Positions 1 through 21,398 of a stretch of DNA of 32,000 bases are shown piece after piece; positions within the stretch are counted from its first letter, which is position 1, and each line of letters begins with the position of its first letter. The notes beneath the pieces were generated by a model. The model ran no database searches. It had not been told where the DNA came from and worked only from the letters and a program-made list of their open reading frames with translations. This DNA is from an uncultured Gammaproteobacteria bacterium (GTDB taxonomy: Bacteria; Patescibacteriota; Microgenomatia; Daviesbacterales; UBA10151). Position numbers and translations under genes: made by a program. The stretch lies in contig CAZFVS010000001.1 of the NCBI GenBank assembly GCA_964522265.1, positions 50,605-82,604 on the forward strand, read 5' to 3'.

Positions 1-408
1 ATAGTCCGATAAAACCAGATGTCCGTTACCATGGTTAGGCGGAATTAAAACTTGCAGTCTGTTAGTTCCCGACAGTGTAAATGATTCCCACTTTCCGTAA
101 TCTTTTGAATTTTTATCAAAATTTAAAACAACAAGATAAAATTTTCCATACAGACATGAAACCATCTTCCAGGTTTTGATATCACCATGAATACCTTTTA
201 AAACACCTTTAGTGCCGGTTGAAATATCATCTTCTACAAATTTTAAGTTAAGGGCATCTTTTGCGTATGGGGTTCCTTTTAATGCATCTGTAAGCGTTTC
301 CTTGTATAATTTTTCATTGTACAGTCCAACATATTCTCCCCTAAAATCTTCATAAGAATCCAGTTTTATAAGGAGTACTCCCTCAAGTTTTGTTTTAGAT
401 ACTTTCAT
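1..408 (-). CDS. RmlC-like cupin, NDP-4-dehydro-6-deoxyhexose 3,5-epimerase family; N-terminal 136 codons only (gene continues past the window start)
   Basis: Absent from the ORF track because no stop lies in the window. My hand translation of the reverse strand from ATG 408..406 stays open to base 1: MKVSKTKLEGVLLIKLDSYEDFRGEYVGLYNEKLYKETLTDALKGTPYAKDALNLKFVEDDISTGTKGVLKGIHGDIKTWKMVSCLYGKFYLVVLNFDKNSKDYGKWESFTLSGTNRLQVLIPPNHGNGHLVLSDY. DFRGE, GIHGD, KMVSCLYGKFYLVVLN and IPPNHGNGHLVLSD follow the RmlC-type jelly-roll pattern. ATGA start/stop overlap with the SDR gene ending at 405. Confidence 0.7.
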   Translation of the reverse strand, partial: MKVSKTKLEGVLLIKLDSYEDFRGEYVGLYNEKLYKETLTDALKGTPYAKDALNLKFVEDDISTGTKGVLKGIHGDIKTWKMVSCLYGKFYLVVLNFDKNSKDYGKWESFTLSGTNRLQVLIPPNHGNGHLVLSDY

Positions 409-1388
409 TTGAAGTAATTTTTCTTTTTTAAATAATCCTTCCGGTTGTTTATAAACCAATTCCAGGTTTTCTGCAACCCTGTTTTTAATGGGGTAGTCGG
501 ATTATAATGGATTATTTTTTTAGCAAGGGATAAATCCATCACTCTTTTGGGAAAACCTGAAGGTTTGGTTGCATCAAATCTATAGTTAAAATCTAAAAAG
601 GTATGCAAAGCGTTAACAAGTTGTTTGATCGAATACCCTTTTCCGCTGCCTAAATTTACAAAACTGCCTTTGGTTCCGTAATGCAAAGCCAGAATAATTC
701 CCTCAGCTACATCTTTGGAATAAGCAAAATCCCTTATAGCTTTTCCATCCCCCCAAACTACTACAGGATCCTCTTTTTGATAAATCCTATACATTAGGGA
801 AGGGATGACCATGGCATTATTCGGGTCAAAATTATCCCCAGGCCCATATACGTTGCAGGGCCTGACAACAGCAAAATTCTCAAGCCCGTACTGTATTTTA
901 TAAGATTGTATTTGCAGTTCTGATATCCTTTTTGCCCAACCAGGAAACATATCCATCGGCGGCCCATCCTGGTTTTGATTTTCTTTAAAAACTGCAGCCG
1001 GTGTGTAAGCACCAATGGATGAAGTGTAGACAACTTTTTTCACATTGTTAATTCTGCATGCTTCCAGTACATTTGTATTGAACATCAGTAGTGGTACAAA
1101 AAAGCTGGCAGGTTTTGTTTTTGTGACTTCAATAGATCCCTTTATTCCCGCTAAATGAAAAACAAAATCTGTATTATTAGTAACTTTTTTACAAAAATCA
1201 AAACTTGTTAAATCACCATAAATATGCCTGGCCTTTTTATTTACGTTAACTTTATCCAAAGAAACAATTTTAACCTTAGCGCCGGATTCGATCAATATGT
1301 CAACTACCTGCCTGCCGATTAAACCGGTTCCACCGGTCACCAAACATTTTTTATTCCTGAAGTTTCTTAAAACTTTGCGATCAATCAT
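405..1388 (-). CDS. NAD(P)-dependent epimerase/dehydratase family protein, GDP-L-fucose-synthase-like extended SDR (paralog A) with non-canonical active-site positions
   Basis: The ORF-track start at 1394 is TTG; the first ATG is residue 3 (1388). Rossmann motif VTGGTGLIG is present. SSIGAYTP, NVYGPGDNFDP and VWGDGKAIRDFAYSKDVA are collinear with Fcl-type SDRs. The expected YxxxK reads PGWAK. 8-nt overlap with the upstream gene and ATGA overlap with the downstream gene. Confidence 0.85.
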   Translation of the reverse strand: MIDRKVLRNFRNKKCLVTGGTGLIGRQVVDILIESGAKVKIVSLDKVNVNKKARHIYGDLTSFDFCKKVTNNTDFVFHLAGIKGSIEVTKTKPASFFVPLLMFNTNVLEACRINNVKKVVYTSSIGAYTPAAVFKENQNQDGPPMDMFPGWAKRISELQIQSYKIQYGLENFAVVRPCNVYGPGDNFDPNNAMVIPSLMYRIYQKEDPVVVWGDGKAIRDFAYSKDVAEGIILALHYGTKGSFVNLGSGKGYSIKQLVNALHTFLDFNYRFDATKPSGFPKRVMDLSLAKKIIHYNPTTPLKTGLQKTWNWFINNRKDYLKKKNYFK

Positions 1389-2139
1389 AGACAAAATATG
1401 AGACCCTTGATGTAAATTTATGCCTTTTTAATTTAATATTATTTAGCCCAAAAACCTCACTTAAGGCAATAGTTTCTCCGGGGCTATCTGCGTCATTTAG
1501 CTCGTCGAATGCAAGCAAGCTTCCTTTAATAAGGTGAGGCTTTATAGCTTCGAGGCATTTTTTAGTAGGCTTATACAGGTCAAAATCGAAATAAGCCAGT
1601 GAAATTATTGTTTCAGGATATTTTTTTAAGTATTTAATTATTTCTATTGTTGCATCTCCAGCTATTAATTCATATTTTTTGATGTGAGAAAGAGGATTTT
1701 CCTGTTCATGGTAATCCATGATTTTTTCAAGATAATTCTGATAATTTTTTGTTAGAGCCAACCCTCTTTTTACCATCATTTTTGATGTACCATCCTTGGA
1801 ACTGATTTGGGGAAATCCTTTAAAAGTGTCAAACCCGACAATTTTTCTGTGTCTGTTAAATGGGTCATAGATTCCTCGTAGAGCCGAAAATAGAGCCAAA
1901 TTTTGTCCCCACCTGGTTCCAAACTCAAAAACAACTCCTGGAATATCAACAATTTTTTGAAAGATGTGGTCCATAAATAAAATCCTGGACAAATTTTTAG
2001 AATTTAGGAAAAGCCCTAAATTAGATAAAATCTGTTCATCGGGAATGGGACAGTTTTTTAAATAACCAATAATCTCTTCCCGTATTTTTTTCTCTGTAGC
2101 ACTCTCGTAAGTTAAAATTTTTTGAAGATCTTTTTTCAT
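1381..2139 (-). CDS. TylF/MycF-family (macrocin-O-methyltransferase-like) SAM-dependent sugar O-methyltransferase
   Basis: The ORF-track start at 2184 is TTG and would overlap the AKR gene by 44 nt. ATG at 2139 (residue 16, MKKDLQ) lies 1 nt after the AKR stop. FEFGTRWGQN...KIVGFDTFKGFP and LAYFDFDLYKPTKKCLE...LLAFDEL match the TylF-family pattern, including the DxDxY metal site. Confidence 0.7.
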   Translation of the reverse strand: MKKDLQKILTYESATEKKIREEIIGYLKNCPIPDEQILSNLGLFLNSKNLSRILFMDHIFQKIVDIPGVVFEFGTRWGQNLALFSALRGIYDPFNRHRKIVGFDTFKGFPQISSKDGTSKMMVKRGLALTKNYQNYLEKIMDYHEQENPLSHIKKYELIAGDATIEIIKYLKKYPETIISLAYFDFDLYKPTKKCLEAIKPHLIKGSLLAFDELNDADSPGETIALSEVFGLNNIKLKRHKFTSRVSYFVYD

Positions 2140-2140
2140 T

Positions 2141-3238
2141 TTATTCAACAATTGCTGAAATGGGTTTTTTGCCTTTGTGTGCAATTACCCAGGCCCAGTA
2201 CCTGATACGTCCTCCTACAAGGTCGTATTTGTATTTTCCGCTTTCAGATTTTTGCAATTTGACAGGTTTTAAAAAATCCCCTTTGTATACTTCTTCAGAT
2301 AGCATGAGGGGTGAAGGGAAAAAATTCAATTTATTGGATAAGGCCTGTTGTAGTGTCTGATAGGCCTTGTGGTTTCCACTAGTTAAAACATTGATATCCT
2401 GTACGGGTACATAAATAATGTTTTGCTTGAAAACATTGTTTAACATAAATTTATCGCTTGCTGATAATTTAAAATACAGACTGCCGAAGTTTTCTTTGAC
2501 ATGGCCGATGTTAGTAGTACCAGGTATGGCAATGACATTTTTATGTGAAACGATCCAGTTTAGTATAATCTGGCTTGCTGTGACGGAATATTTTTTTGAT
2601 AATGAATTTAATTTTTCCAGATATTGAGGATTCTTCAAAATGGCGCCCGCGTTTAAAGGGCTGTAGGAAATTAAGGTGATATTATTTTTTTGGCAATATG
2701 GCAAAATGAAATCTTCTACAGTTCTGTCCAATAGGTTATACTCTGTTTGTAATGATACAAGAGGGGCAAATTTTAATACCCCCCTCACTATTTTTAACTG
2801 CCTTAGCGAAAAATTGCTGATTCCGACATATCTGATTTTACCAATCTTGACTAGCTTTTCCATGGCAGCAACTGTTTCTTCTATATCGGTATTAGGATTT
2901 GGCCAGTGTATCTGGTATAGGTCAATATAGTCAGTCTGAAGCCTTCTTAGACTTTCTTCACATGAGCGGATAACATCTTTATACGAGTTATGTTGCGGAG
3001 AAAATTTTGTAGCGATAAATATTTTTTTTCTGATCTTTTTTAAAGCAGTTCCGATTAAGACTTCGGCATGACCGTCAAAATACACTTCAGCAGTGTCTAT
3101 TAATTTAAGACCCAGGTTTACTGATCCACGGATAAGTGATATTAATTTTTTATCGCGGTATTTATTCTGAGACTCGAAACCGGTTCCGGTACCGAGGCCT
3201 ATTTTAGGGATTTTTGAAAAGGGATTTTTGAGTGACAT
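2141..3238 (-). CDS. Aldo/keto reductase (residues 1-270) fused to a C-terminal ParB/sulfiredoxin-like domain of about 95 aa
   Basis: AKR hallmarks are present: LIDTAEVYFDGHAE, IFIATKF, DYIDLYQIHWP, GKIRYVGISNF, SLQTEYNLLDR, AIPGTTNIGHVKEN. The C-terminal extension IIYVPVQDINV...FLKPVKLQKSESGKYKYDLVGGRIRYWAWVIAHKGKKPISAIVE is collinear with the ParB N-terminal domain core (xPLLVRxxxxxYELVAGERRYRAAxxAGxxxVPAVV). Confidence 0.8.
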   Translation of the reverse strand: MSLKNPFSKIPKIGLGTGTGFESQNKYRDKKLISLIRGSVNLGLKLIDTAEVYFDGHAEVLIGTALKKIRKKIFIATKFSPQHNSYKDVIRSCEESLRRLQTDYIDLYQIHWPNPNTDIEETVAAMEKLVKIGKIRYVGISNFSLRQLKIVRGVLKFAPLVSLQTEYNLLDRTVEDFILPYCQKNNITLISYSPLNAGAILKNPQYLEKLNSLSKKYSVTASQIILNWIVSHKNVIAIPGTTNIGHVKENFGSLYFKLSASDKFMLNNVFKQNIIYVPVQDINVLTSGNHKAYQTLQQALSNKLNFFPSPLMLSEEVYKGDFLKPVKLQKSESGKYKYDLVGGRIRYWAWVIAHKGKKPISAIVE

Positions 3239-3243
3239 CGGAT

Positions 3244-3669
3244 TTATTTAGGATCTATATTCCAACCTTTTAAATCATCGGTTTCAATATTGGTACGTTT
3301 TAAACTCGGTTCTTTGTCGCCGAACTCTTCGAGTAATAAATTTTTCATCCTGTTTCTGATTCCATTAAGTTGGTGAGCCATTTTCAGCAGCTTATCATAT
3401 TGATCAGGTTTTTCTTGCAGCTGATCTTTATTGTTCCAAATATAAACATTGATTTGTGCGATTGTAGTAACCAGTCTAATAATTTTAGCTGTTATTTTTG
3501 GATTCTTCTTTTCTTCTAAAATAAACTCGATATCATGGGAGATTTTCCCTAATTCTTTTGAATAACTGTCTTTATTTTTTGATAATTTAATCTCTTTGAT
3601 CTGGTCAATAGTCAGTGCGTCTATCAGATCGGCTAAAGTCGGAAGAAATTGTCTTGTTTTATGGCTCAT
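3244..3669 (-). CDS. Hypothetical small (141 aa) predicted all-helical protein
   Basis: ATG start, ATGA overlap with the upstream SDR gene, and a 5-nt gap to the AKR start, so it is embedded in the operon. No catalytic motif recognised. Charged helical sequence (LADLIDALTIDQIKEIK..., AHQLNGIRNRMKNLLLEEF). Confidence 0.6.
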   Translation of the reverse strand: MSHKTRQFLPTLADLIDALTIDQIKEIKLSKNKDSYSKELGKISHDIEFILEEKKNPKITAKIIRLVTTIAQINVYIWNNKDQLQEKPDQYDKLLKMAHQLNGIRNRMKNLLLEEFGDKEPSLKRTNIETDDLKGWNIDPK

Positions 3670-4649
3670 CTTTTAAATTTTTGATAATCACTTACATACC
3701 AATTAATAGTTTTTAAAATTGCCTGTTCTAAACTGTGCTTAGGCTTAAAGCCCAGAATGTCGGTAGCCCGTTTTACAGAAAGAAGCCTAATTGGGTCTCC
3801 GGTTGGTTTGGTGGTGTCCCAATCAATTTTTTGTTTTTGGGGGACATTTCGGGCAATTGTTTGAGCTATTTTTTTGATGATGTATTTTTTGCCGGTTCCC
3901 AGGTTTATTGGCAAGCAAGTTGGGGCTTTTTCTAATGCAAGAATCATCCCGTCTGCTGCGTCATCAACAAAAATAAAATCCCTGATAGCGCTTCCGTCTC
4001 CCCAGATTTTGACCGGGTTTTCTCCGTTTATCATTCTGGCAATTAACGCTGGAATAACCTGAGCAGTTTTTGGATTAAAATCATCAAAAGGACCAAAGAC
4101 GTTAGAGGGTCTGACAATCTTTACAGCATCCCAGCCGTATTCCTTAAGATAAGTTTCACCCTGCAACTCGCCGACCCTTTTGGCAATGCCGGGAATCCTG
4201 TCATTTTGTTTAGGCATACCATCCCAGACTGTTTCTTCTTCTTTGGGTTTATTTGACTGTGGATAAGCGCAGATGCTGGAAACAAACAAAAACTTTTGAA
4301 CATTATTTTTAAAGCTTGCATCCATCAGATTTGTCTGAAACCTTAGCATTGGTACGAAATAACTTGCAACTTTTGTTTCATCTATACCTACAGATCCTTT
4401 AATTCCAACCAGATTAAAAACATAATCTTTGCCTTTGGTAACTTTTAGGCAGTTATTTAAGTCAGTTAGATCTTTATGGATAAATTCAACCTGTTTTTGG
4501 AAAACTTCATCAACAAATTTTTTATCATCAAGCGATACTATAATAATTTTTGCACCGATTTTAAGCAGTTTATTGACCAGAGAAATGCCAATCATGCCGG
4601 AGCCGCCTGCCACTAAAATTTTCTTATCTTTATAAAAACTATTGGACAT
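3666..4649 (-). CDS. NAD(P)-dependent epimerase/dehydratase family protein, Fcl-like extended SDR (paralog B of 405..1388)
   Basis: VAGGSGMIG Rossmann motif. SSICAYPQ, NVFGPFDDFNP and IWGDGSAIRDFIFVDDAA are collinear with paralog A along the whole length. The YxxxK position reads PGIAK. Confidence 0.85.
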   Translation of the reverse strand: MSNSFYKDKKILVAGGSGMIGISLVNKLLKIGAKIIIVSLDDKKFVDEVFQKQVEFIHKDLTDLNNCLKVTKGKDYVFNLVGIKGSVGIDETKVASYFVPMLRFQTNLMDASFKNNVQKFLFVSSICAYPQSNKPKEEETVWDGMPKQNDRIPGIAKRVGELQGETYLKEYGWDAVKIVRPSNVFGPFDDFNPKTAQVIPALIARMINGENPVKIWGDGSAIRDFIFVDDAADGMILALEKAPTCLPINLGTGKKYIIKKIAQTIARNVPQKQKIDWDTTKPTGDPIRLLSVKRATDILGFKPKHSLEQAILKTINWYVSDYQKFKR

Positions 4650-5613
4650 TATTTTTTTTGTTGTTAGTCCATCGCCTTATATTTTTTATCAAGGTCTGAT
4701 TGTTGAGTCTTAGCGATGAAAGCATATAATCTCTATCGCCATATGTAAAGCAATGACCATCGGAGAACCCAAATCTTAAAAACTTTACAGGTAGATTATG
4801 GTCAGTTAAGAAATCACTGATGATTGTTCCAACACCACTGTAAGATAAATGTTCATCAAGCGTTATAACAAAAGGGTATCTTTTTATCAAAGAATACAGC
4901 AGCTTTTCGTTTAAAGGTTTTAACCGATAAACATCAATAACACCAAGTTTTAAGTTGTTAGTTTCTAAAGCCTTAGTAATTTCAATTGCTTTATGTACAA
5001 ATACACCTGTTGTAACAATTACTCCATCATTGCCTTTTTGAACTTCCTTTAGTCCGTCCAAAAAATTATCTTTTTTGTCATAAAGCTCAGGATAGTTGCC
5101 TTTATCAAAACGTATATAGGTAAGTCCTGGATATTTATATACTAAATGAGGGAAAACAGATAAACTAATATTATCCGAAGCATTTAAAATCCTCATATGC
5201 GGAATTGCCCTCATTGCCGCAAGATCTTGGTTGGCATGATGGGTTGGACCGTCACTTCCGTAAGTTAATCCTCCGCCTATTCCTGCAATTACAACAGGCA
5301 GGTTCATTAAAGACAAATTAACTTTAATCTGTTCCAAACAGCGGATAGTGGCAAAGTTGACAATTGCATGGACAAAAACTTTTTTACCCGAAAGTGCCAG
5401 TCCTGCTGCCACATTGATCATATTTTGTTCCGCAATTCCCGCATTTATAATCTGCGTTGGTATTTCTTTGTAAAATTTTTCAAAAGAACGAACTCCCTGG
5501 TCTGCATGGAGAAGGATTACATCCTTATCTTTTTTTGCAATAACAAAAAGCTCTTCAAAAAAAGCATCCCTCATATCTGAATATTTTGTATTTGGTGCGG
5601 TTATTTTTTTCAT
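4639..5613 (-). CDS. Transketolase-family protein, C-terminal (pyrimidine-binding plus C-terminal domain) subunit
   Basis: INAGIAEQNMINVAAGLALSGKKVFVHAIVNF, GPTHHANQDLAAMRAIPHMRIL and a C-terminal alpha/beta domain. Its start overlaps the stop of the N-terminal subunit gene by 1 nt (TAATG). Confidence 0.85.
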   Translation of the reverse strand: MKKITAPNTKYSDMRDAFFEELFVIAKKDKDVILLHADQGVRSFEKFYKEIPTQIINAGIAEQNMINVAAGLALSGKKVFVHAIVNFATIRCLEQIKVNLSLMNLPVVIAGIGGGLTYGSDGPTHHANQDLAAMRAIPHMRILNASDNISLSVFPHLVYKYPGLTYIRFDKGNYPELYDKKDNFLDGLKEVQKGNDGVIVTTGVFVHKAIEITKALETNNLKLGVIDVYRLKPLNEKLLYSLIKRYPFVITLDEHLSYSGVGTIISDFLTDHNLPVKFLRFGFSDGHCFTYGDRDYMLSSLRLNNQTLIKNIRRWTNNKKNNVQ

Positions 5614-6425
5614 TAAAGCCCCAGTTCTTTTTCTGCTTTTATTTTCTGATCAGGGTTTGGAACACCGTGGTGCCAATGGGGGTTGTTTTCCATGAATGAT
5701 ACTCCTTTCCCCTTGATTGTGTTTGCGATGATTGCCAGCGGTTTGATTCTTTTTTTTTGCTTTGCTTTTTTGATTGCGTTTATGATCTGCTTAAAATTAT
5801 GCCCATCTATGTTAACTGTTTCCCAGCCAAAAGCTGCCCATCTGCCTTCCATTGGTGAGTTGCCTGCAAAATCTTTCGTATTTGTTGTTGCGGCAATGGA
5901 ATTATTATCTACGAAGACCGTTAAATTATTCAATTTTTGTGAGGATGCAAAGTTGGCAGCTTCCCAGACAGACCCTTCAGCGCATTCGCCGTCTCCTAAA
6001 ATAACAAAAGTGATAAAATTTTTTCTGTCCAGTTTGGCACCCAAAGCAAGTCCTGCACCAATACCCAACCCGTGGCCCAGAGATCCTGAGGATATTTCGA
6101 TCCCCGGTATAAAATGGTCAGGGTGTCCGCCCAAGATTGAGCCATTTTGCCCGTATGTGTTTAATACCTCTTTTTTGAAAAAACCAGCATCTGCAAGTAC
6201 TGCATAAAGTGCCAGACAGGCATGACCTTTGCTGAGTATGATCCGGTCGCGGTTAGGGTCATTTTGGTTTTTAGCAGATATTTTTAGAAGTTTTGAAAAA
6301 TAAAGAGATACTAAAATCTCGGTAACTGAAAAAGCTCCTCCAAGATGTCCTTTCCCTGCCTGGGATTGCATCCTGAAAGCTTGTTGTCTGACCCATTCCG
6401 CTTTTTGTACCAGCTTCTCATTCAT
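5613..6425 (-). CDS. Transketolase-family protein, N-terminal ThDP-binding subunit
   Basis: The ORF-track start at 6428 is TTG; ATG at 6425 gives a 1-nt TGATG junction with the E1 beta stop. GHLGGAFSVTEILVSLYF, LSKGHACLALYAVL, GSLGHGLGIGAGLALG and the ThDP motif GDGECAEGSVWEAANFASSQKLNNLTVFVDNN are present. Confidence 0.85.
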   Translation of the reverse strand: MNEKLVQKAEWVRQQAFRMQSQAGKGHLGGAFSVTEILVSLYFSKLLKISAKNQNDPNRDRIILSKGHACLALYAVLADAGFFKKEVLNTYGQNGSILGGHPDHFIPGIEISSGSLGHGLGIGAGLALGAKLDRKNFITFVILGDGECAEGSVWEAANFASSQKLNNLTVFVDNNSIAATTNTKDFAGNSPMEGRWAAFGWETVNIDGHNFKQIINAIKKAKQKKRIKPLAIIANTIKGKGVSFMENNPHWHHGVPNPDQKIKAEKELGL

Positions 6426-7498
6426 CAAAAAGGTCCTTTAAATTTATTTTCATAACTGTAGAACTGCTCGTTGCTTAAATCTGTTGGTTGGAAAAGCTTT
6501 TCTTCAATCGCCCTGATGATTGTTACTGCATTAGGATAAAACTCATTTTCTAAGGGTCTGGTGCAGGGGCAGGGTGTGGGTGCAAAACCGATTCTTTTAA
6601 CCGCTGATTTTAGGATTTTATAGCATTGATCATAAACCCGGGTAGCCACTTCAGCGCTAAAACCGCAATTTATCCAGTCGTAGTCCGCAATAATAAGATG
6701 CCCTGTTTTTTTAACTGAGTTGATGATTATCCCCTCATCCAGAGGGGAAATTGTCCTGGGGTCAATTACCTCTACCGATACCCCTCTTCTTTCAAGTATC
6801 TCTGCAGCCTTGAGTGCCTCCACATTCATATAGGATGTGGCAACAATTGTTACATCTTTCCCCTCATGTAAAATTTTGCCCTGGCCCATGGGTAGGGGAT
6901 CTGGGTTTTCATCAACCTCTCCCATGACATCATAGAGCATCCTGTGTTCCAAAAAAACCACAGGATTATTATCTCTGATTGCAGCTTTCAACAGCCCTTT
7001 GGTATCTGATGGAGTAGTGGGCATAATAACTTTCAGGCCCGGAATATGGGCAAAAAAAGACTGAAGACTTTTACTATGTTGGTAGGACTGGCCCCAGCCT
7101 TTGCCAATGACAGCTCGGATAACAAGAGGGATTTTATATCTGCCGTTTGAACCGTAACCATAACTTGAGACCATATTTACAAGCTGGTTCATGGCCAAGA
7201 GTAAGAAATCCAACCTAATATGTACATTAACCGGCCGCATCCCGTTTATTGCTGCCCCGAGTCCGAACCCTAAAAGAGCCTCTTCCGATAAGGGAGTTGA
7301 AAAAATCCTTTCAGGCCCAAATTCCTCCAGGAGTCCCGAAGTTGAGCCGAATATTCTTTTATGGTCAGCGGCATCAATTCCGTATACGAAGACATTTGGA
7401 TCCAACCTCATCTCTTCAGCAAGTGCTTCAGCAATAGCCTGGCGGTAACTGATCAAACGGGTTTTAGAGTTTAAGTTGTTTGTTTTGGTACTTTTCAT
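6425..7498 (-). CDS. 2-oxoacid (pyruvate/acetoin/BCKA-type) dehydrogenase E1 component, beta subunit homolog
   Basis: ISYRQAIAEALAEEMRLDPNVFVYG, ERIFSTPLSEEALLGFGLGAAINGMRPV, HSKSLQSFFAHIPGLKVIMPTTPSDTKGLLKAAIRDNNPVVFLEH. ATGA overlap with the E1 alpha stop. Confidence 0.85.
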   Translation of the reverse strand: MKSTKTNNLNSKTRLISYRQAIAEALAEEMRLDPNVFVYGIDAADHKRIFGSTSGLLEEFGPERIFSTPLSEEALLGFGLGAAINGMRPVNVHIRLDFLLLAMNQLVNMVSSYGYGSNGRYKIPLVIRAVIGKGWGQSYQHSKSLQSFFAHIPGLKVIMPTTPSDTKGLLKAAIRDNNPVVFLEHRMLYDVMGEVDENPDPLPMGQGKILHEGKDVTIVATSYMNVEALKAAEILERRGVSVEVIDPRTISPLDEGIIINSVKKTGHLIIADYDWINCGFSAEVATRVYDQCYKILKSAVKRIGFAPTPCPCTRPLENEFYPNAVTIIRAIEEKLFQPTDLSNEQFYSYENKFKGPF

Positions 7499-8466
7499 TC
7501 TTGGTAAACATTATTGTATAGATCTTCTTTTTGGGGAAACGGGGTTTTTTGGGCAGATTCCAGGCTTTTGTATATTTTTTCCGAAATCTGCGCTTCTAAT
7601 TCTTGGATCTGTTTTTCTGTAAACTTAAGACCTAACAGTTTTTTCCTTTGAATTAAGTATGGGTCGATTCTTTTCCATTTTTCAAACTCATCCTTGCTTC
7701 TGTAACCTGCTTGAAAATCCTCATGTACTCCGACATGTTCAAGATAGCGGTAGTATTTTAACTGTATAAATGCCGGTGTTTTATCTTTTTCAATTTTAGC
7801 AATGGCATTTAGTGTCAGGTTATAAATTACTTCCGGGTCAGTTGTATTTTCTTCAAAAAAATTGATTTTATATTGGGATATAATTTTTGTTAAAGAATCA
7901 TAGCCGCGCCTTAAATGAGTAGCTGTGTGGACTGCCAAACCATTATCCTCGCAAATGAACAGGACAGGAAGCTTCATCAGGCAGGCTATGTTGAGGCTTT
8001 CCCAAAACACGCCTTCATCTGTTGCCCCATCCCCGAAAAAAACAGCAACAACTTTGCCGTTTTTTTTCTGTTTATTGACAAACGCAGCCCCTAGAGCAAG
8101 CGGGATTGTGCTTGCCACAATTGCAGATACACCCAGGAGGTTATGTTCTGGCGAAATCAGGTGCATTGATCCGCCCTTACCTTTGACAACACCAGTAGTC
8201 TTACCGTACATTTCCCCAAAAAACCCTTCCACATCACCTGTTTTTGCAAGATACAACCCATGGCTTCTGTAAGTTCCGAAAGCTTGGTGGTTTGTACCAA
8301 GGGCAAGGCAGCAACCTGCAGAAATTGCCTCAGAACCCATTGACATGTGCATTGGTGTTTTCATCTCATCAGATTCATAATTTTCAATAATAAGCTCTTC
8401 ACTCCGTCGTATCAGGTAAACAGTTTTATATAAATTAAGATTTAAATTCTTCCTATCAGATGGCAT
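7495..8466 (-). CDS. 2-oxoacid dehydrogenase E1 component, alpha subunit homolog (ThDP-binding)
   Basis: The ORF-track start at 8517 is TTG, followed by ATG at 8514; either would overlap the Gmd-like gene by about 60 nt. ATG at 8466 (MPSDRKNL) overlaps by 11 nt and has a GGAGGG about 13 nt upstream. TYRSHG, GKGGSMH and the ThDP motif GDGATDEGVFWESLNIACLMKLPVLFICEDN are present. Confidence 0.8.
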   Translation of the reverse strand: MPSDRKNLNLNLYKTVYLIRRSEELIIENYESDEMKTPMHMSMGSEAISAGCCLALGTNHQAFGTYRSHGLYLAKTGDVEGFFGEMYGKTTGVVKGKGGSMHLISPEHNLLGVSAIVASTIPLALGAAFVNKQKKNGKVVAVFFGDGATDEGVFWESLNIACLMKLPVLFICEDNGLAVHTATHLRRGYDSLTKIISQYKINFFEENTTDPEVIYNLTLNAIAKIEKDKTPAFIQLKYYRYLEHVGVHEDFQAGYRSKDEFEKWKRIDPYLIQRKKLLGLKFTEKQIQELEAQISEKIYKSLESAQKTPFPQKEDLYNNVYQE

Positions 8467-9445
8467 TTTTGTAGTAATCCCTCCAATAGTTAAGCATGTC
8501 CAAAAGCGTGTCATCAAACTTATAAAGCGGTTTCCAGCCAGTAGCTTTTATGAATTTATCAACGGAGGGGATTTGCAATGTTACATCTGAAGGCCTCAGT
8601 CTTTTGGGATCATCTTTTATCCCGACACCCTTTTTGGTGGAGAATGAGATAAGTTTATTTAACATCTCCCCTACAGTCATGGTTTCAACTCCGCCGATAT
8701 TGTAAACTTCTCCGTCCTTGCACTTGTTTACCAGAAGCCAATAAGCCCTAACAGCATCCCGCACATCCATAAAAGTACGTATGCTATTTAAATTGCCTAC
8801 CATCACTGTAGGTTTTTGTTTCCCTACCTCTATAGCTGCTATCTGTTTTGCAAAATTGGAAGGTGCAAAAACCTCGCCGCGTCTTGGACCTTCATGGGTG
8901 AACATCCTTGTCCTGATTGTTTTTAAACCCCATGATAAAAAATATTGATATGCAATCATATCCTCACCAACTTTTGATACCGCATAAGGGGAGGCAGGCC
9001 GCAACGGGTTTGTTTCTTTAATAGGTATCTCATTTTTTGTCACCTGACCATAAACTTCCGAAGAACTACAAATATGAATAATGGGGTCATAACCGGATTT
9101 ACGTTTATTTTGTAAAATAGCCTCCAATAAATTACATGTTCCAATAGTATTTATTTCAAGTGTTGATGAAGGGGCAAGAAAACTGAAGTCAACATAAGAT
9201 TGGGCTGCCAGATGAAATATGACGTCGGGTTTTTCCTCACTTATAGTTTTGTTTAAAGAATGGGAATCTAAAAGGTCGCCGTGGATCAGTTTTATTTTAT
9301 GCAATACATGAGAGATGTTATTCTTTGGGGATCGCCACCTGACCAATCCTGAAATTTTTACTTTAGGGTGATTCTCTAAAATATAATCGACAAGATGACT
9401 ACCGACAAAACCGGTGATGCCGGTGATTAACGCCTTTTTATACAT
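8456..9445 (-). CDS. gmd: GDP-mannose 4,6-dehydratase family SDR (Gmd/Rmd-like NDP-hexose 4,6-dehydratase)
   Basis: ITGITGFVGSHLVDYIL, FHLAAQSYVDFSF, SSSEVYG, SPYAVSK (YxxxK), MFTHEGPRRGEVF, VGNLNSIRTFMDVRDAVRAY. The PRRGE and GNLxxxR blocks are Gmd-type. Nucleotide specificity cannot be read from the sequence. Confidence 0.65.
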   Translation of the reverse strand: MYKKALITGITGFVGSHLVDYILENHPKVKISGLVRWRSPKNNISHVLHKIKLIHGDLLDSHSLNKTISEEKPDVIFHLAAQSYVDFSFLAPSSTLEINTIGTCNLLEAILQNKRKSGYDPIIHICSSSEVYGQVTKNEIPIKETNPLRPASPYAVSKVGEDMIAYQYFLSWGLKTIRTRMFTHEGPRRGEVFAPSNFAKQIAAIEVGKQKPTVMVGNLNSIRTFMDVRDAVRAYWLLVNKCKDGEVYNIGGVETMTVGEMLNKLISFSTKKGVGIKDDPKRLRPSDVTLQIPSVDKFIKATGWKPLYKFDDTLLDMLNYWRDYYKNAI

Positions 9446-9489
9446 TCGGGACTATTTTGATAGCAGTTTAATTTTTCTGATCCGTTTTG

Positions 9490-10416: not shown

Positions 10417-10457
10417 ATTTTGCAAAATAGATAAACTATATTATAAACTTGTTTGCA

Positions 10458-11010
10458 ATGATATATAAATTTTTAGGCAAAACAGATCTTAGAATTTCAG
10501 CAGTAGGACAGGGGACAACCGGTACAGGAGGGTATATTAATGCAGATTCAGCGAAAGATAAAAACAGGATAAAAGTTTTAAGATATGGTATTAGTTTAGG
10601 AATGAACTTTATTGATACTGCTGAGCTTTATGGGGGGGGGACATGCAGAAGAGATAGTAGGCAAGACGACAAGGGAACTTCGGAAAAAAATTATTATTGC
10701 CTCAAAATTTAATCCAGGAAATGCCAATAGAATTAGCAAAGCTTTGGAGGGAAGTTTGGGACGGGGGATTCAGTTAAAATTCATTTTACGTAAGTTGTTT
10801 TTAATGTTGCATCTATTGAGTTTCTTAAAAAAAGCAGAACTTGAAATACAGATTTACGCAAAAAAAGCGGGAATAAGATCTTTAAAACAGACAATAGTCT
10901 ACTATATAAAATTAATTGTTTTTGTTTTTGTTTTTCTATTTGTTGACTGGATAAAAATTTTAAGCTTGAGAGATATTGATTATAATTTACTACGCGGCCA
11001 TTTATCGTAG
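10458..11010 (+). pseudogene. Aldo/keto reductase pseudogene: +1 frameshift in a G9 run and 3' truncation (paralog of the AKR at 2141..3238)
   Basis: Two ORF-track frames (10449..10712 and 10612..11010) splice into one AKR if the G9 run is read as G8: MIYKFLGKTDLRISAVGQGT...NFIDTAELYGGGHAEEIVGKTTRELRKKIIIASKFNP...ALEGSL...MLH...KKAGIRS...SLRDIDYNLLRG. These align with LIDTAEVYFDGHAE, IFIATKF, EESL, IHWP, GKIRYVG and SLQTEYNLLDR of the intact paralog. The last roughly 100 codons of an AKR are missing. Homology after EGSL is weak. Confidence 0.65.
10632..10640 (+). repeat. G9 homopolymer at the frameshift point of the AKR pseudogene
   Basis: Read directly: TAT GGG GGG GGG ACA. Eight Gs would restore YGGGHAEE. 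Position anchored on the ORF-track frame (Y61 codon at 10629). Confidence 0.9.
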
Positions 11011-11920: not shown

Positions 11921-11923
11921 AGC

Positions 11924-14001: not shown

Positions 14002-14049
14002 AACTTTTTAGAGATGATACCAGAATTTATAGTAATTTGAAATTCAAAC

Positions 14050-15968: not shown

Positions 15969-17204
15969 ATGCCTTCAGGAAAACTACCAAAACAACTTCA
16001 AAGCAACCAGGAGCACATCATCAAGAAAGTTTTGTATGCAATGGCGGTTTATGGAAAAGAAGAAATCAATGCAGTGATTAAATCATTGCAGAATAGGTGG
16101 TTGGCTTCCGGTCCCCTAGTTAAAGAATTTGAAGAAAAAATGGCATCCTTATTTGGTAAAAAATATGGAATAGCCGTGAACTCTGGATCATCCGCCAACT
16201 TAATAACCTTGCATTTACTGGATCTTCCAGAAGGGAGCGAAGTGATTACCCCGGCTTGTACATTTTCTACAACAGTATCCACAATAATCCAAAACAGACT
16301 AATCCCTGTTTTTGTTGATAGTGTTATCGGAAGGTACACGATTGATGAAAATTTAGTGGAAGGAGCAATTACAAAAAAAACAAAAGCCATACTTGCGCCA
16401 CATTTAGTTGGAGGGGTTTGTAATATGGAGAAGTTAAAAAGAATTACAGATATGTATAATTTGTTTCTAATTGACGATTCGTGTGATGCTTTGGCTCCGA
16501 AACTGCATGGAAGACCGATTGCTGTTTTTGGGGATATGACTACTACTTCTTTTTACGGTTCACATATCATAACTGCTTTGGGATTTGGTGGAATGCTTAT
16601 GACAGATGATAAAAAAATATATACACGAGCACTAGCTTTAAGGGATTGGGGGAGGGTTGGGGATGATCGTGAAGCTTTTGAAGACAGATTTAATTTTGAG
16701 ATTGATAATATCCCTTATGATTCAAAATTTCTATATACGGAAATAGGCTATAATTTAAAAATGAATGAGGCTGCAGCTGCTTTTGGATTAGAACAAATAA
16801 AAAAATTACCCCAATTTCTTAAAATACGTCAGAATAACTTTGATACGATGAAAAAGTTTTTTTCTCAATATTATGAATGGTTCTATATACCCTATCTCAT
16901 TTCAGGTGCAGAAACTGCTTGGTTAGCTTTCCCGTTAACCATCAAAGCAGAAGCCCCGTTTAACAGGTATGATTTTTTAAAACACATGGAAATGAATGGG
17001 ATTCAAACAAGGGTTCTTTTTTCAGGTAATATCACAAGGCATCCTTTATATAAAAAAATAGAACATAGGATTTACGGAAACTTAAAAAATGCCGATGAAA
17101 TTATGAGATCCGGATTACTTCTTGGATGTCATCATGGTATGGCAGATCAAGATGTAGCTTACGTTCTGGATACCGCCGAAAAATTTCTTAACTCATATCG
17201 TTAG
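15969..17204 (+). CDS. RfbH/AscC/ColD-type PMP-dependent NDP-4-keto-6-deoxyhexose 3-dehydrase (DegT family, active-site His instead of Lys), copy 1
   Basis: NRWLASGPLVKEFE, VNSGSSANL, IDDSCDALA, TSFYGSHIIT (His199, nt 16563-16565, where aminotransferases have Lys), LRDWGR, YDSKFLYTEIGYNLKMNE, QTRVLFSGNITRHPLY. GFGG replaces the usual GEGG. There is no Cys after RDWGR. Confidence 0.75.
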   Translation: MPSGKLPKQLQSNQEHIIKKVLYAMAVYGKEEINAVIKSLQNRWLASGPLVKEFEEKMASLFGKKYGIAVNSGSSANLITLHLLDLPEGSEVITPACTFSTTVSTIIQNRLIPVFVDSVIGRYTIDENLVEGAITKKTKAILAPHLVGGVCNMEKLKRITDMYNLFLIDDSCDALAPKLHGRPIAVFGDMTTTSFYGSHIITALGFGGMLMTDDKKIYTRALALRDWGRVGDDREAFEDRFNFEIDNIPYDSKFLYTEIGYNLKMNEAAAAFGLEQIKKLPQFLKIRQNNFDTMKKFFSQYYEWFYIPYLISGAETAWLAFPLTIKAEAPFNRYDFLKHMEMNGIQTRVLFSGNITRHPLYKKIEHRIYGNLKNADEIMRSGLLLGCHHGMADQDVAYVLDTAEKFLNSYR

Positions 17205-20183: not shown

Positions 20184-21398
20184 TTATCGTTCAAAATACT
20201 CTTTGAAAGAAGAAACTATGTAATTTATCATTTCTTCGGTTACGGTAGGGTGGACGCTGATAAAAAACGAGTTGAATAAGATATTATTGGTGATTTTTAA
20301 ATCTCCTTCTCGTCGGTGGTCAATATTTTGATAGGCGGGCTGTTTTAAAATATTACCTGCAAAAATAACTCTTGTCTCAATATTTTTTTCTTCTAAAAAC
20401 TTTAACATATTTTTACGGGCTTGATCTTTACAAAAAACACAGTTTTTTAATGTAATTGGAAAAGAAAACCAGCTGATTTGGGCTTCTTCGTGTACTTTTG
20501 GCAGCAAAAGATATTCAGAGAACTGACTTAAACCTTTATGAAGCATGTTAAAATTATTTTGTCTGTCATCAATTATTTTTTTGAGTTTCTTAAGTTGAAT
20601 TCTACCCATCGCTGCCTGTAGTTCAAGAGGTCTGAAATTAAAACCACGGGTGATATATGTATAACGGGATTGATAGTCGGGTGGTAATTCTTTGTATTGA
20701 TCATGTACCCCTTCATCTGAATCGAGCGCCCGGCCCCATTCCCGCAATGAAACCGCTTTTTTGTAAAGATTACTATCATTTGTGAACAAAGCTCCTCCCT
20801 CACCGGTTGTGATAATATGTGCTGCCATAAAAGAAGTGCATGATAAATCCGCAAAAGACTCAACGGGTTTACCAGCAAATTTAGATCCATAGCCATCGCA
20901 ATTATCTATAATTAGAAAAAGTCCATGTTTTTTGGTAATTTCCCGAAGTTTCTTTAAATCCGGCACACTACCGGCAATATTGACACACAAAACAGCTTTG
21001 GTTTTTTGAGTAATCGCCTTTTCGACTTCCCCTAAGTCTAAACAATAATTTTGAGGTTCTACATCTATAAAAACGGGTTTGTAGCGGTTTAACAAAACAG
21101 CGTTGATAGCTGTAGGAAAGTTTACGGCAGGTATAATAACCTCTGATTCATCCGGCAGTTCTATAGCTGAAAAAGCCAGCATTAGTGCAGAAGAGCCGGA
21201 GTTTACAAACACGGCATGTTTGACTTCTGATGTTTGGGCAAGTTCTTTTTCAAATTCTCTTCCCTCCGCATCAAGCGTCCACCAATTGCGCGATAAAACC
21301 TTATTGATAGCATTTATTTCTGTTTTATCTACAACAGCCCCCCCATATTTTATGCGAGTTTTACCAGGGATAAAACTTTTGGAAGTATCAGCCTGCAT
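20184..21398 (-). CDS. RfbH/AscC/ColD-type PMP-dependent NDP-4-keto-6-deoxyhexose 3-dehydrase (His instead of Lys), copy 2
   Basis: RNWWTLDAEGREFE, VNSGSSAL, IDNCDGYG, TSFMAAHIITTGEGG (His194, nt 20817-20819), LREWGR, YQSRYTYITRGFNFRPLE, ETRVIFAGNILKQPAY. I judge roughly one third identity to copy 1 by eye. Confidence 0.75.
   Translation of the reverse strand: MQADTSKSFIPGKTRIKYGGAVVDKTEINAINKVLSRNWWTLDAEGREFEKELAQTSEVKHAVFVNSGSSALMLAFSAIELPDESEVIIPAVNFPTAINAVLLNRYKPVFIDVEPQNYCLDLGEVEKAITQKTKAVLCVNIAGSVPDLKKLREITKKHGLFLIIDNCDGYGSKFAGKPVESFADLSCTSFMAAHIITTGEGGALFTNDSNLYKKAVSLREWGRALDSDEGVHDQYKELPPDYQSRYTYITRGFNFRPLELQAAMGRIQLKKLKKIIDDRQNNFNMLHKGLSQFSEYLLLPKVHEEAQISWFSFPITLKNCVFCKDQARKNMLKFLEEKNIETRVIFAGNILKQPAYQNIDHRREGDLKITNNILFNSFFISVHPTVTEEMINYIVSSFKEYFER

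Follow-up and report, generated by a model that had tools for sequence, protein, structure and literature searches.

A candidate GDP-heptose-modification operon with both an E1 alpha/beta pair and a split transketolase

The known branched sugars of lipopolysaccharides are made by single-chain YerE-type enzymes using long keto-acid donors (PMC9306805). Two-subunit E1-type enzymes also branch keto sugars, as indicated genetically for AlmDI/DII and in vitro for KbDH (PMC12247030). A 2025 review and literature searches yielded no characterised pathway that joins an E1 alpha/beta pair to a split transketolase, in line with a sequence-only reading of the present locus. The same reading drew an analogy with erwiniose and caryophyllose, which is weak, as a single YerE-type step using a long keto-acid donor accounts for the long branches of these sugars (PMC9306805).

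Here, both enzyme types are encoded in one minus-strand operon (1-9445) of the window, the whole 32-kb stretch of DNA analysed, which also carries surface-glycan genes (Wzm, Wzt, glycosyltransferases and FkbM methyltransferases). We put at about even the chance that the operon is a GDP-heptose-modification cassette, predicted to supply an unusual (C-branched, methylated) sugar for an ABC-transporter-dependent surface glycan.

Operon architecture and gene content

Recomputed from 9445 down to base 1, the junctions measure -11, -4, -1, -1, -11, -4, +5, +1, -8 and -4 nt; none leaves more than 5 nt between genes, and all ten lie exactly where the sequence-only reading had placed them. The ten complete genes all have an ATG start and an intact frame. 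For E1 alpha (8466), the methyltransferase (2139) and SDR2 (1388), starts had been chosen over longer TTG-initiated frames, and this choice is supported by the agreement with orthologue lengths (318-327 aa for E1 alpha homologues). The remaining 18 same-strand junctions in the window measure 355, 3, -4, 48, -4, 44, 33, 87, 52, 1, -4, 9, -8, 6, -22, -4, -8 and 13 nt. Since about half of these are no longer than 5 nt, ten consecutive tight junctions are unusual even in a compact genome (~0.5^10). No minus-strand terminator-like hairpin was found within 1-9445 in a scan that did not exceed shuffled controls. We infer a single transcript with coupled translation. Gene eleven has 136 codons against ~184 in its orthologues, and synteny shows that the predicted operon extends past base 1, where the window edge truncates it. 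The first gene is itself preceded, after only 44 nt, by an FkbM methyltransferase gene on the same strand, so that the count of eleven is a lower bound.

Table 1. Genes of the operon and two putative partner genes elsewhere in the window
Feature	Position	Strand	Supporting match
NDP-sugar 4,6-dehydratase (gene 1), nearest GDP-D-glycero-D-manno-heptose 4,6-dehydratase	8456..9445	-	Pfam GDP_Man_Dehyd 259 bits; 7US5 277 bits
ThDP-dependent E1 alpha-like subunit	7495..8466	-	Pfam E1_dh 161 bits
E1 beta-like subunit	6425..7498	-	Pfam Transket_pyr + Transketolase_C
Split transketolase N-terminal (PP-domain) subunit, TKN	5613..6425	-	Pfam Transketolase_N 147 bits
Split transketolase C-terminal (Pyr + C domain) subunit, TKC	4639..5613	-	Pfam Transket_pyr + Transketolase_C
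GDP-fucose-synthase-like extended SDR (SDR1)	3666..4649	-	NCBIfam Fcl 175 bits, under cut-off 500
141-aa four-helix protein, uncharacterised family	3244..3669	-	AlphaFold model
Aldo-keto reductase (AKR) with conserved ~100-aa C-terminal extension, weakly ParB/Srx-like	2141..3238	-	Pfam Aldo_ket_red 229 bits
CalS11-type nucleotide-sugar O-methyltransferase	1381..2139	-	CalS11 214 bits
GDP-fucose-synthase-like extended SDR (SDR2), 'core cassette' type	405..1388	-	NCBIfam Fcl 153 bits
RmlC-fold 3,5-epimerase, truncated at window edge	1..408	-	Pfam dTDP_sugar_isom 83 bits
RfbH/ColD-type putative 3-dehydrase, outside operon	15969..17204	+	NCBIfam RfbH 373 bits, under cut-off 423
Second RfbH/ColD-type putative 3-dehydrase	20184..21398	-	NCBIfam RfbH 365 bits; motif SFMAAHIIT

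Profile or structure-database searches bore out ten of the eleven family calls of the sequence-only reading (Table 1). SDR1, whose best solved relative is a GDP-fucose synthetase (131 bits), shares 61-69% identity with the SDR encoded after TKC in the related loci L004, L005, L044, L069, L075 and L077, and moves together with the transketolase module. SDR2 is missing from the otherwise closest loci and is 70-77% identical to the SDR preceding RmlC in L003, L007, L012 and L025. The gene for the 141-aa protein invariably lies between SDR1 and the AKR. Its product matched no Pfam or NCBIfam family, and its 212 homologues (22 invariant columns) are unnamed or 'hypothetical' save for one evidently unrelated automatic label; the AlphaFold model (pLDDT 83) has four helices and gave no significant fold match.

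The reductase domain of the AKR covers residues 12-262 of 365. The tail, called a ParB fusion earlier, is kept across the aligned orthologues and matched nothing when queried alone. A profile of 14 orthologous tails matched solely the N-terminal domains of Noc, ParB and Spo0J, in register (E 0.07-0.45), giving weak but coherent support for a ParB-like nature. Further, the call of a TylF-type O-methyltransferase holds in a more specific form: Pfam TylF is matched at only E 0.023, and CalS11, a TDP-rhamnose 3'-O-methyltransferase, at E 2e-62. The likeness to an enzyme acting on TDP-rhamnose suggests that the late steps occur at the nucleotide-sugar level.

The two ThDP-dependent enzymes

The E1 pair, judged from its sequence and neighbours, is no pyruvate dehydrogenase. 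E1 alpha has the GDG...N ThDP motif, scores 252 bits against NCBIfam PDH_E1_alph_y (cut-off 394) and reaches only 114-126 bits against its best solved relatives, the BCKDH and PDH E1 alpha subunits. E1 beta scores 303 bits against NCBIfam PDH E1 beta (cut-off 321) and has relatives in 72 genome loci at 44-72% identity. Homologues of the E2 catalytic domain, the lipoyl domain and LpdA were absent from the window, the 72 genome loci and 79 metagenome loci (151 in total), while control probes for E1 alpha and E1 beta matched 69 and 73 targets in the genome-scan locus set. In contrast, a true complex on Phaeobacter plasmid pGal_E78, at 43% identity, is encoded as E1a-E1b-lipoyl-E2-LpdA. The pair is thus predicted to be a stand-alone carboligase working without E2/E3, and its separation from the housekeeping complex, anticipated in the sequence-only reading, is upheld.

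It is very improbable that the E1 pair and the transketolase belong to ordinary central metabolism, as a pyruvate or acetoin dehydrogenase and a pentose-phosphate transketolase, and sit in a glycan locus by chance. Their best family names are indeed PDH E1 alpha, PDH E1 beta and transketolase, both enzymes have intact active-site residues, and E1 beta is ~43-45% identical to its counterparts in true complexes. However, NCBIfam scores fall below the equivalog cut-offs, no E2/E3 homologue occurs in any of the loci scanned, synteny with sugar-nucleotide genes is kept across many phyla, and the transketolase carries an altered phosphate site.

This alteration is seen in 13 of 13 aligned cassette transketolases, wherein His461 of the E. 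coli enzyme (His416 in human), the otherwise invariant phosphate-site histidine, gives way to Gly, Ala or Pro, and Arg520 to Lys. TKN scores 234 bits against 6YAK, the N-terminal chain of the Carboxydothermus split transketolase, and keeps the four donor-site histidines, the GDG motif and the Asn. TKC, with 6YAJ as its best solved relative (137 bits), retains the equivalents of Arg358, the catalytic Glu, Asp469 and His473. The substrate may still be phosphorylated, since the Arg358 equivalent is kept and a Lys occupies the Arg520 position.

The split transketolase is, by prediction, a dedicated pathway enzyme. It may act earlier, on sugar phosphates, leaving only the E1 pair to branch the nucleotide sugar; it would then supply sedoheptulose-7-phosphate, or a higher ketose phosphate (e.g. 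octulose) activated by GmhA, HddA, GmhB and a nucleotidyltransferase. The transaldolase LmbR in lincosamide octose biosynthesis offers a parallel. The fairly canonical TKN, related to a functional split transketolase, and the positive residues of TKC fit this alternative, as do the transketolase-only cassettes L087, L089 and L090, wherein the genes directly adjoin GmhA, GmhB and HddA. We nevertheless consider an early role rather unlikely, given the loss of the phosphate-site histidine in all 13 aligned cassette enzymes. Further, the transketolase follows E1 beta in the window and in 11 of 12 transketolase-carrying genome loci, mostly with tailoring genes next; in L153 it forms a fusion with a methyltransferase, and it fills the slot of E1 in sister cassettes (L084, L087, L089 and L090).

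The sugar scaffold

The sequence-only reading called gene 1 a Gmd-like dehydratase. The family assignment stands and the implied substrate probably does not: the best solved relative is the GDP-heptose dehydratase 7US5, against which it scores 277 bits versus ~134 bits for GDP-mannose dehydratases. The second-best solved relative is a reductase (Rmd, 219 bits), an observation that counts against the heptose-dehydratase reading. Campylobacter GDP-heptose 3- or 3,5-epimerases, including 7ANG, 7AN4, 7M14 and 8DCO, make up all eight of the best solved relatives of the epimerase.

Heptose-activation genes are absent from the 32-kb window, and the heptose link rests on orthologous loci. At least one HddA-, GmhA- or GmhB-like gene occurs in 43 of the 72 E1 beta-related loci (HddA-like kinase in 40, GmhA in 9, GmhB in 5), and a ManC/HddC-like nucleotidyltransferase in 24. 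Downstream of the epimerase orthologues (~184 aa) come genes for an SDR, a nucleotidyltransferase and GmhB. In the closest loci L004, L044 and L077, the order past the equivalent of the window edge is RmlC-SDR-nucleotidyltransferase-GmhB, the nucleotidyltransferase being guanylyltransferase-like and HddA lying nearby in L077; in L005 and L069 this order is seen as far as the nucleotidyltransferase. Upstream, L004 and L077 carry a gene for a glycosyltransferase of the GDP-fucose-using family GT10, and L044 and L069 carry its cluster mates. The scaffold is most likely a GDP-heptose rather than GDP-mannose or CDP/dTDP-glucose, the substrates proposed earlier, which are probably wrong. It should be noted that the scaffold may be a different higher sugar, since two of the calls fall short of their equivalog cut-offs, with 147 bits for the HddA-like kinase (cut-off 600) and, against HddC, 142 bits for the nucleotidyltransferase (cut-off 300).

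A hexose pathway leading from GDP-mannose or CDP/dTDP-glucose to a 3,6-dideoxy-4-C-branched hexose of the yersiniose, erwiniose or caryophyllose class would find a place for the two DegT genes outside the operon. In support of the two 3-dehydrases named in the sequence-only reading, both are RfbH-like and have His in place of the Schiff-base Lys (SFYGSHIIT in 15969..17204). Among the 72 related loci, 27 have such His-type genes, often adjoining E1 beta, and the putative 3-dehydrase at 15969..17204 is a probable pathway partner. Membership of gene 1 in Pfam GDP_Man_Dehyd also fits a hexose, as do its similar NCBIfam scores of 167 bits for gmd and 164 bits for dTDP-glucose dehydratase, both below cut-off. 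However, the solved relatives of the dehydratase and epimerase and the recurrent heptose genes make this route improbable; moreover, neither a glucose-1-phosphate cytidylyl- or thymidylyltransferase, among the window proteins scanned, nor a single-chain YerE-type enzyme was found in the window.

Proposed route and the cassette family

Family assignments, synteny, E2/E3 absence and active-site motifs were read directly; the substrates, step order, branch position and product given here are proposals. GmhA, HddA, GmhB and HddC-type enzymes would provide GDP-D-glycero-alpha-D-manno-heptose, with activation supplied, to judge by the closest relatives, from the nucleotidyltransferase and GmhB just past the equivalent of base 1 and the HddA-like kinase nearby in L077. 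Gene 1 would dehydrate it to GDP-6-deoxy-4-keto-heptose, and the 3-hydroxyl may also be lost through the action of one or other of the His-type DegT enzymes. The E1 pair would decarboxylate pyruvate and transfer the ThDP-bound two-carbon unit to a sugar carbonyl, giving an acetyl-branched tertiary alcohol. The split transketolase would add two more carbons (a glycolaldehyde unit) to a nucleotide sugar, either the same intermediate or one of a parallel pool. The two Fcl-like SDRs and the AKR would reduce carbonyls, the RmlC-like enzyme would epimerise, and the CalS11-like enzyme would O-methylate the nucleotide sugar. One conflict is that RmlC-type epimerases and Fcl-type reductases require the 4-keto group that C4 branching consumes, so that the step order, the branch position or the single-product model must depart from this simple scheme.

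The E1 pair and the transketolase may instead serve two different sugars, since their modules occur separately, and divergently in L075. The operon would then be a fusion of two independent modules, each forming one C-C bond: Gmd-E1ab-SDR2-RmlC for an acetyl-branched 6-deoxyheptose, and TK-SDR1-small protein-AKR-methyltransferase for a hydroxyacetyl-branched, O-methylated one. E1-only cassettes are the majority of the 72 loci and transketolase-only cassettes comprise L084-L090, module content is combinatorial across loci, and in L075 the transketolase side has its own nucleotidyltransferase-GmhB fusion gene. We regard two sugars as possible but less likely: in the window, L004, L005, L044, L069 and L077, the two ThDP enzymes share one dehydratase gene, which stands ahead of them in a co-directional tight block, and stacked ThDP sets recur in 16 of the 72 loci, including E1+E1. 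In L153 and L154, two split transketolases stand directly in tandem after a dehydratase-like SDR.

Returning to the GDP-heptose cassette, the co-occurrence in other genomes for which the sequence-only reading had suggested looking is extensive. Of the 38 loci with the dehydratase orthologue cluster, 36 have it within three genes of E1, and the transketolase sits between E1 beta and an SDR in 12 genome loci. The combinations seen are E1+TK, TK+TK, E1+E1 and E1+ALS-like+TK, and cultured carriers include Solidesulfovibrio magneticus RS-1 and Azospirillum lipoferum 4B. The operon unites two distinct ThDP-dependent C-C enzymes in one sugar operon, a combination for which we found no characterised precedent. 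Collectively, E1 pairs and split transketolases are interchangeable, stackable modules of a large, cross-phylum and uncharacterised cassette family.

Operon layout and gene identities

The ten junctions between the eleven minus-strand genes, which run from position 9445 down to 1, are overlaps (negative) or gaps of -11, -4, -1, -1, -11, -4, +5, +1, -8 and -4 nt. These values, taken from the ORF table and recomputed directly, are the same, at the same coordinates, as in the sequence-only reading, which had reported only overlaps or gaps of ≤5 nt. As only about half of the 18 other same-strand junctions in the window are tight, ten consecutive tight ones are unusual even for this compact genome (roughly 34% G+C). 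The ten complete genes are all intact and ATG-initiated; the starts at 8466, 2139 and 1388 were preferred to longer TTG-initiated ORFs, and orthologue lengths agree. No terminator-like hairpin was found on the minus strand inside the block, but promoter and terminator scan counts were no higher than in shuffled controls. We infer a single transcript for the operon. Since gene 11 is truncated by the window edge at base 1 and an FkbM methyltransferase gene lies on the same strand 44 nt upstream of gene 1, eleven genes are a minimum.

Searches against Pfam, NCBIfam and solved structures bore out the proposed gene order, with refinements.

Operon genes and the two RfbH-like DegT genes of the window, with their principal matches
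Feature	Position	Strand	Match or character
Dehydratase (gene 1)	8456-9445	-	277 bits to 7US5 (GDP-D-glycero-D-manno-heptose 4,6-dehydratase)
E1 alpha	7495-8466	-	PDH-E1-like; 252 bits (NCBIfam equivalog cut-off 394)
E1 beta	6425-7498	-	PDH-E1-like; 303 bits (NCBIfam equivalog cut-off 321)
TK-N (transketolase, N-terminal half)	5613-6425	-	234 bits to N-terminal chain of Carboxydothermus split transketolase
TK-C (transketolase, C-terminal half)	4639-5613	-	Less canonical; 137 bits in solved-structure search
SDR1	3666-4649	-	Resembles GDP-fucose synthetase
Small protein, 141 aa	3244-3669	-	No family
AKR with conserved tail	2141-3238	-	Tail of ~100 residues
Methyltransferase	1381-2139	-	Clear relative of CalS11 (TDP-rhamnose 3'-O-methyltransferase), 214 bits
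SDR2	405-1388	-	Resembles GDP-fucose synthetase
RmlC-like epimerase (gene 11), truncated	1-408	-	Best eight solved relatives all Campylobacter GDP-heptose 3- or 3,5-epimerases
RfbH-like DegT	15969-17204		RfbH, 373 bits; His in place of Schiff-base Lys
RfbH-like DegT	20184-21398		RfbH, 365 bits; His in place of Schiff-base Lys

The supposed TylF-type O-methyltransferase is indeed a methyltransferase, but clearly related to CalS11; Pfam TylF reaches only E 0.023. The AKR had been read as a ParB fusion. A profile of 14 orthologous tails matches only the N-terminal domains of Noc, ParB and Spo0J, and does so in register; however, the E values are just 0.07-0.45, the tail alone has no Pfam or PDB match, the Pfam ParBc model is undetected, and the GERRxR motif reads EGRIRY in this protein. 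The fusion is plausible, not proven. The 141-aa protein has 212 homologues, all unnamed or 'hypothetical' save for one evidently unrelated automatic label, which share many invariant polar residues. Its structure is confidently modelled as four helices, and a fold search with the model returned only generic helical bundles and no match at E ≤0.001.

A 174-aa antisense ORF within the TK-N gene (5683-6207, plus strand) is most likely a by-product of coding-strand composition rather than a gene. The G+C content is 0.38-0.425 over positions 5000-9000 (TK-N, E1 beta, E1 alpha and dehydratase) versus ~0.29-0.36 elsewhere in the window, and the same module has 60-78% amino-acid identity to loci of other lineages, which together hint at its lateral acquisition.

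The remainder of the window has further features on the minus strand. Within 9490-14706, Wzm and Wzt ABC transporter genes are flanked by two FkbM methyltransferases and another methyltransferase, and the carbohydrate-binding Wzt_C tail of Wzt scores weakly (25 bits, below the cut-off of 30.4); we take this layout to represent ABC-dependent glycan export with a methylated chain terminator. Two large ORFs of 451 and 600 aa (21486-24696) have no Pfam or NCBIfam family, and the ~9-11 hydrophobic segments of the 600-aa protein suggest that it may be a GT-C-like transferase, polymerase or ligase. At 24698-25408 lies a Trm112-like zinc ribbon fused to a weak methyltransferase domain. A GFO oxidoreductase like UDP-GlcNAc 3-dehydrogenase (307 bits), a Lys-type DegT aminotransferase and a hexapeptide acetyltransferase (25405-29724, with GT2 and SDR genes interleaved) look like a separate WbpB/WbpE/WbpD-type pathway to a 3-acetamido sugar. 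A 146-aa ORF (31517-31957) matches just the C-terminal half of an extended SDR; with a complete SDR gene beside it, it is possibly a remnant.

Sugar scaffold and related loci

The sequence-only reading had proposed GDP-mannose or CDP/dTDP-glucose as the substrate of the operon. Both terminal genes argue against this: the dehydratase matches the GDP-heptose enzyme 7US5 ahead of an Rmd reductase (219 bits) and GDP-mannose dehydratases (~134 bits), and the epimerase is nearest to GDP-heptose enzymes.

Scanning a genome collection with E1 beta yielded 72 loci (44-72% identity) from Microgenomates and Levybacteria, Omnitrophota, SAR324, Chloroflexota, Planctomycetota, Verrucomicrobiota, Rhodospirillales, a Woesearchaeota MAG and others. 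The ORFs of these loci were clustered de novo and the clusters annotated. E1 alpha is present in 56 of the 72 loci, an HddA-like GHMP kinase in 40, the dehydratase in 38 (in 36 of them no more than three genes away from E1), Fcl-like SDRs in 37, the RmlC-like epimerase in 27, DegT proteins, nearly all with His for the Schiff-base Lys, in 27, a ManC/HddC-like nucleotidyltransferase in 24, an unassigned methyltransferase-like protein of ~314 aa in 21, a FabG-type reductase in 17, B12-radical SAM enzymes in 13, GmhA in nine and GmhB in five. At least one HddA-, GmhA- or GmhB-like heptose gene occurs in 43 of the 72; the HddA-like kinases and nucleotidyltransferases of the related loci score under equivalog cut-offs. 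The 32-kb window itself has no GmhA, HddA, GmhB or HddC gene. A typical arrangement, as in loci L013 and L032, is (NT)-GmhB-GmhA-dehydratase-HddA-Nudix-E1a-E1b-MT-FabG-SDR-RmlC-SDR, where NT is the nucleotidyltransferase.

The gene order of the window is reproduced in its nearest relatives, the genome loci L004, L005, L069 and L044 and the metagenome contig L077. In all five, the epimerase is followed by another SDR and then a nucleotidyltransferase, with GmhB next in L004, L044 and L077 and an HddA-like kinase nearby in L077. We conclude that the operon extends beyond base 1 of the window, where its further genes can be deduced from these orthologous loci, and that its scaffold is most probably GDP-heptose, rather than GDP-mannose or CDP/dTDP-glucose. 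L004 and L077 encode a GT10 fucosyltransferase-like glycosyltransferase shortly upstream, and members of its cluster also precede the operon in L044 and L069. An additional gene separates the last SDR from the nucleotidyltransferase in L077 (11620-12498) and L044 (13890-14786); that of L077 belongs to the inositol-monophosphatase family and possibly encodes an extra sugar-phosphate phosphatase. The whole window-type operon recurs among metagenome loci, for example L077, and in its complete form may be confined to CPR Microgenomates and one unclassified bin.

The core E1 cassette was found in two cultured bacteria, on plasmids in both. Plasmid pDMC1 of Solidesulfovibrio magneticus RS-1 (5906-16971 of locus L158) has the order rSAM-NUDIX-kinase-E1a-E1b-Fcl-DegT-SDR-NT, followed at some distance by genes for a GT-C 'protein O-glycosylation' transferase and a SIS-domain protein, and plasmid p6 of Azospirillum lipoferum 4B (9554-14402 of locus L155) has SDR-E1a-E1b-DegT.

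The two ThDP modules and a proposed pathway

The E1 pair comprises the Pfam domains E1_dh (alpha) and Transket_pyr plus Transketolase_C (beta), and its translations show an intact GDG...N ThDP motif and the QHS and EH histidines. Its surroundings are not those of a housekeeping complex. With the lipoyl protein, E2 and LpdA of Phaeobacter plasmid pGal_E78 as probes, tblastn gave no match in the window, the 72 genome loci or the 79 metagenome loci (151 loci in all), and both subunits score under their NCBIfam cut-offs. On pGal_E78, the positive control, an E1 pair 43% identical to that of the window is followed by the lipoyl protein, E2 and LpdA, and the E1 alpha and E1 beta control probes matched 69 and 73 targets, respectively, in the genome-scan locus set. 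Identity of the window E1 beta is ~43% to that of a true complex versus 44-72% to relatives in a sugar context. By the gene content of the window and these loci and by the sub-cut-off scores, the E1 pair is not part of a dehydrogenase complex. The absence of E2/E3 and the fixed place beside a 4,6-dehydratase match the architecture of the two-subunit 'alpha-KADH2' enzymes.

Two further comparators were discarded. The E1 pair of Streptomyces griseofuscus plasmid pSGRIFU1 adjoins an NRPS-type condensation protein, not sugar genes. An E1 alpha/beta pair supposed to lie in the Coxiella O-antigen region was dropped as a lead: one Coxiella LPS paper, searched in full text, names no pyruvate dehydrogenase, E1 component or thiamine, and transketolase occurs in none of the Coxiella papers listed.

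In the second module, TK-N retains the four donor-site histidines and the GDG...N motif. Synteny places split transketolases inside the sugar pathway in 12 genome loci and several metagenome loci, the latter context coming from a TK-C-anchored metagenome scan and one neighbourhood look-up; the hosts include CPR bacteria, Omnitrophota, SAR324 and Desulfuromonadaceae-like bacteria. Some cassettes have a transketolase only (GmhA-GmhB-SDR-SDR-HddA-TKN-TKC-B12 rSAM-DegT in L087 and L089, variants in L084 and L090), and here it occupies the slot held by E1 elsewhere. In L075, the transketolase module and a dehydratase-E1 module are divergent. L153 (2497-7080) and L154 (2487-7080) contain a tandem of two split transketolases behind a dehydratase-like SDR. 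The second C-terminal subunit (639 aa) carries a fused methyltransferase domain, and downstream come a B12-radical SAM gene and an SDR1-small-AKR-AKR-MT block, in this order.

At least two ThDP sets are present in 16 of the 72 genome loci, as E1 plus transketolase in 12 and as duplicated E1 in four. Two of the 12, L011 (11694-14623) and L035 (6914-9835), additionally encode a class I/II aminotransferase and a 574-aa ALS/YerE-type ThDP enzyme between E1 beta and TK-N, which brings these loci to three ThDP enzymes each; no other relatives have an ALS/YerE-like gene.

An alignment of 13 cassette TK-C proteins with the human and Carboxydothermus enzymes bears on the substrate. All 13 conserve the catalytic Glu and residues equivalent to Arg358 and His473, and all but one conserve the Asp469 equivalent. 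At the phosphate site, however, every one of the 13 has Gly, Ala or Pro instead of the His (E. coli His461, human His416) and Lys instead of Arg520. Slot, synteny and altered phosphate site speak for a non-canonical function dedicated to nucleotide sugars, although, with the Arg358 equivalent retained, the cassette transketolases may act on sugar phosphates instead.

Based on homology and synteny, GDP-heptose would first be dehydrated to a 6-deoxy-4-keto sugar. At the level of enzyme families, this could be followed by 3-deoxygenation by one of the two RfbH-like His-type DegT enzymes, addition of a pyruvate-derived acetyl unit by E1 alpha/beta and of a glycolaldehyde unit by the transketolase, and finally reduction by the SDRs and AKR, epimerisation by the RmlC-like enzyme and O-methylation by the CalS11-like enzyme. 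As RmlC- and Fcl-type enzymes need the 4-keto group that C4 branching removes, they would have to act first, unless the branch is placed elsewhere or two products are made. We advance tentatively, as a proposal that may well prove wrong, that the E1 pair and then the split transketolase act on a single GDP-6-deoxy-4-keto-heptose, adding acetyl and then hydroxyacetyl units to give a doubly extended or branched C11-class higher sugar, and that the building of higher sugars by iterated, mix-and-match ThDP modules (E1+TK, TK+TK, E1+E1, E1+ALS-like+TK) would then be a general, hitherto unrecognised strategy in surface glycans of uncultured bacteria.

Relation to known branching systems and significance

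The GDP-heptose pathways of Campylobacter jejuni and Yersinia employ a GDP-heptose 4,6-dehydratase, RmlC-fold 3- or 3,5-epimerases, Fcl-like 4-reductases and a PLP-dependent 3-dehydratase. Gene 1 and gene 11 have their best solved relatives in these pathways (7US5 for the former; 7ANG, 7M14 and 8DCO for the latter), and the likeness extends to the Fcl-like SDRs and His-type DegT genes and to the HddA, GmhA, GmhB and HddC homologues of related loci. The products of these pathways are unbranched 6-deoxy- or 3,6-dideoxyheptoses, and we know of no ThDP enzyme in them. Literature searches combining a heptose pathway with a ThDP enzyme, E1 or transketolase returned nothing relevant; the ~120 published E1-type clusters were not compared.

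In the biosynthesis of aldgamycin, kibdelomycin and related antibiotics, two-subunit alpha-KADH2 enzymes branch keto sugars with a C2 unit taken from pyruvate; members are AlmDI/DII (aldgarose) and KbDH-alpha/beta (kibdelomycin), with others proposed for avilamycin, trioxacarcin and paulomycin (PMC12247030). Like these actinomycete enzymes, the window has E1 alpha and beta without E2/E3 beside an NDP-sugar 4,6-dehydratase and reductases; the likeness lies in architecture, gene context and the expected C2 addition from pyruvate to a keto sugar. In contrast, the pair here comes from uncultured bacteria other than actinomycetes and belongs to a locus for cell-surface glycans that includes Wzm/Wzt export; the scaffold is probably GDP-heptose instead of dTDP-hexose, and a second ThDP enzyme is stacked. 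Split-gene transketolases have been proposed for hydroxyacetyl branching in miharamycin, amipurimycin and 13 Streptomyces gene clusters; only 13 such putative enzymes are listed, all from Streptomyces and none characterised in vitro, and no ketone-accepting transketolase has been characterised to date (PMC12247030). The transketolases described here resemble this type in their separate N- and C-terminal genes inside a sugar pathway and in the expected glycolaldehyde transfer to a keto sugar, but they occur outside Streptomyces and have heptose genes as partners, joined in the window by an E1 pair.

YerE, ErwE and MMAR_2332 (yersiniose, erwiniose and caryophyllose; LPS/LOS) install a ThDP-dependent C-branch on a 3,6-dideoxy-4-keto nucleotide sugar of a surface glycan, with a 3-dehydrase upstream. 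Putative 3-dehydrases of this type, with His for the Schiff-base Lys, are encoded in the window by the two RfbH-like DegT genes. However, YerE-type enzymes consist of one chain, belong to the decarboxylase superfamily and use a CDP-hexose, and the scan of window proteins detected no single-chain ThDP protein with TPP_enzyme_N, _M and _C domains. The sequence-only reading had also drawn an analogy to erwiniose and caryophyllose, which is weakened since the long branches of these LPS sugars are explained by one YerE-type step with an aldolase-made long keto acid (PMC9306805).

E1-type branching enzymes, known from ~120 gene clusters, are tied to specialised natural products and YerE types to LPS, and the E1 and transketolase types belong mainly to antibiotic pathways (PMC12247030). 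What is new relative to the known branching systems is the probable heptose scaffold, the surface-glycan context in uncultured phyla and the stacked, interchangeable ThDP modules.

Few enzymes have so far been established as ThDP-dependent C-branching enzymes of sugars, namely YerE types for LPS and E1 types for a small number of antibiotics; split transketolases are proposals only. The operon and its relatives (72 genome loci, further metagenome loci and >200 small-protein homologues) place both the E1 and the transketolase type in surface-glycan loci of many phyla, on what is probably a heptose scaffold and often stacked. The hypothesis is directly testable, as GDP-heptose is obtainable by enzymatic synthesis and the core cassette is found in two bacteria in culture. 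Confirmation of the chemistry would define heptose-derived sugars, branched or extended in chain, as a new class, provide new carboligases for tertiary alcohols and offer a way into the surface chemistry of CPR cells, of which almost nothing is known.
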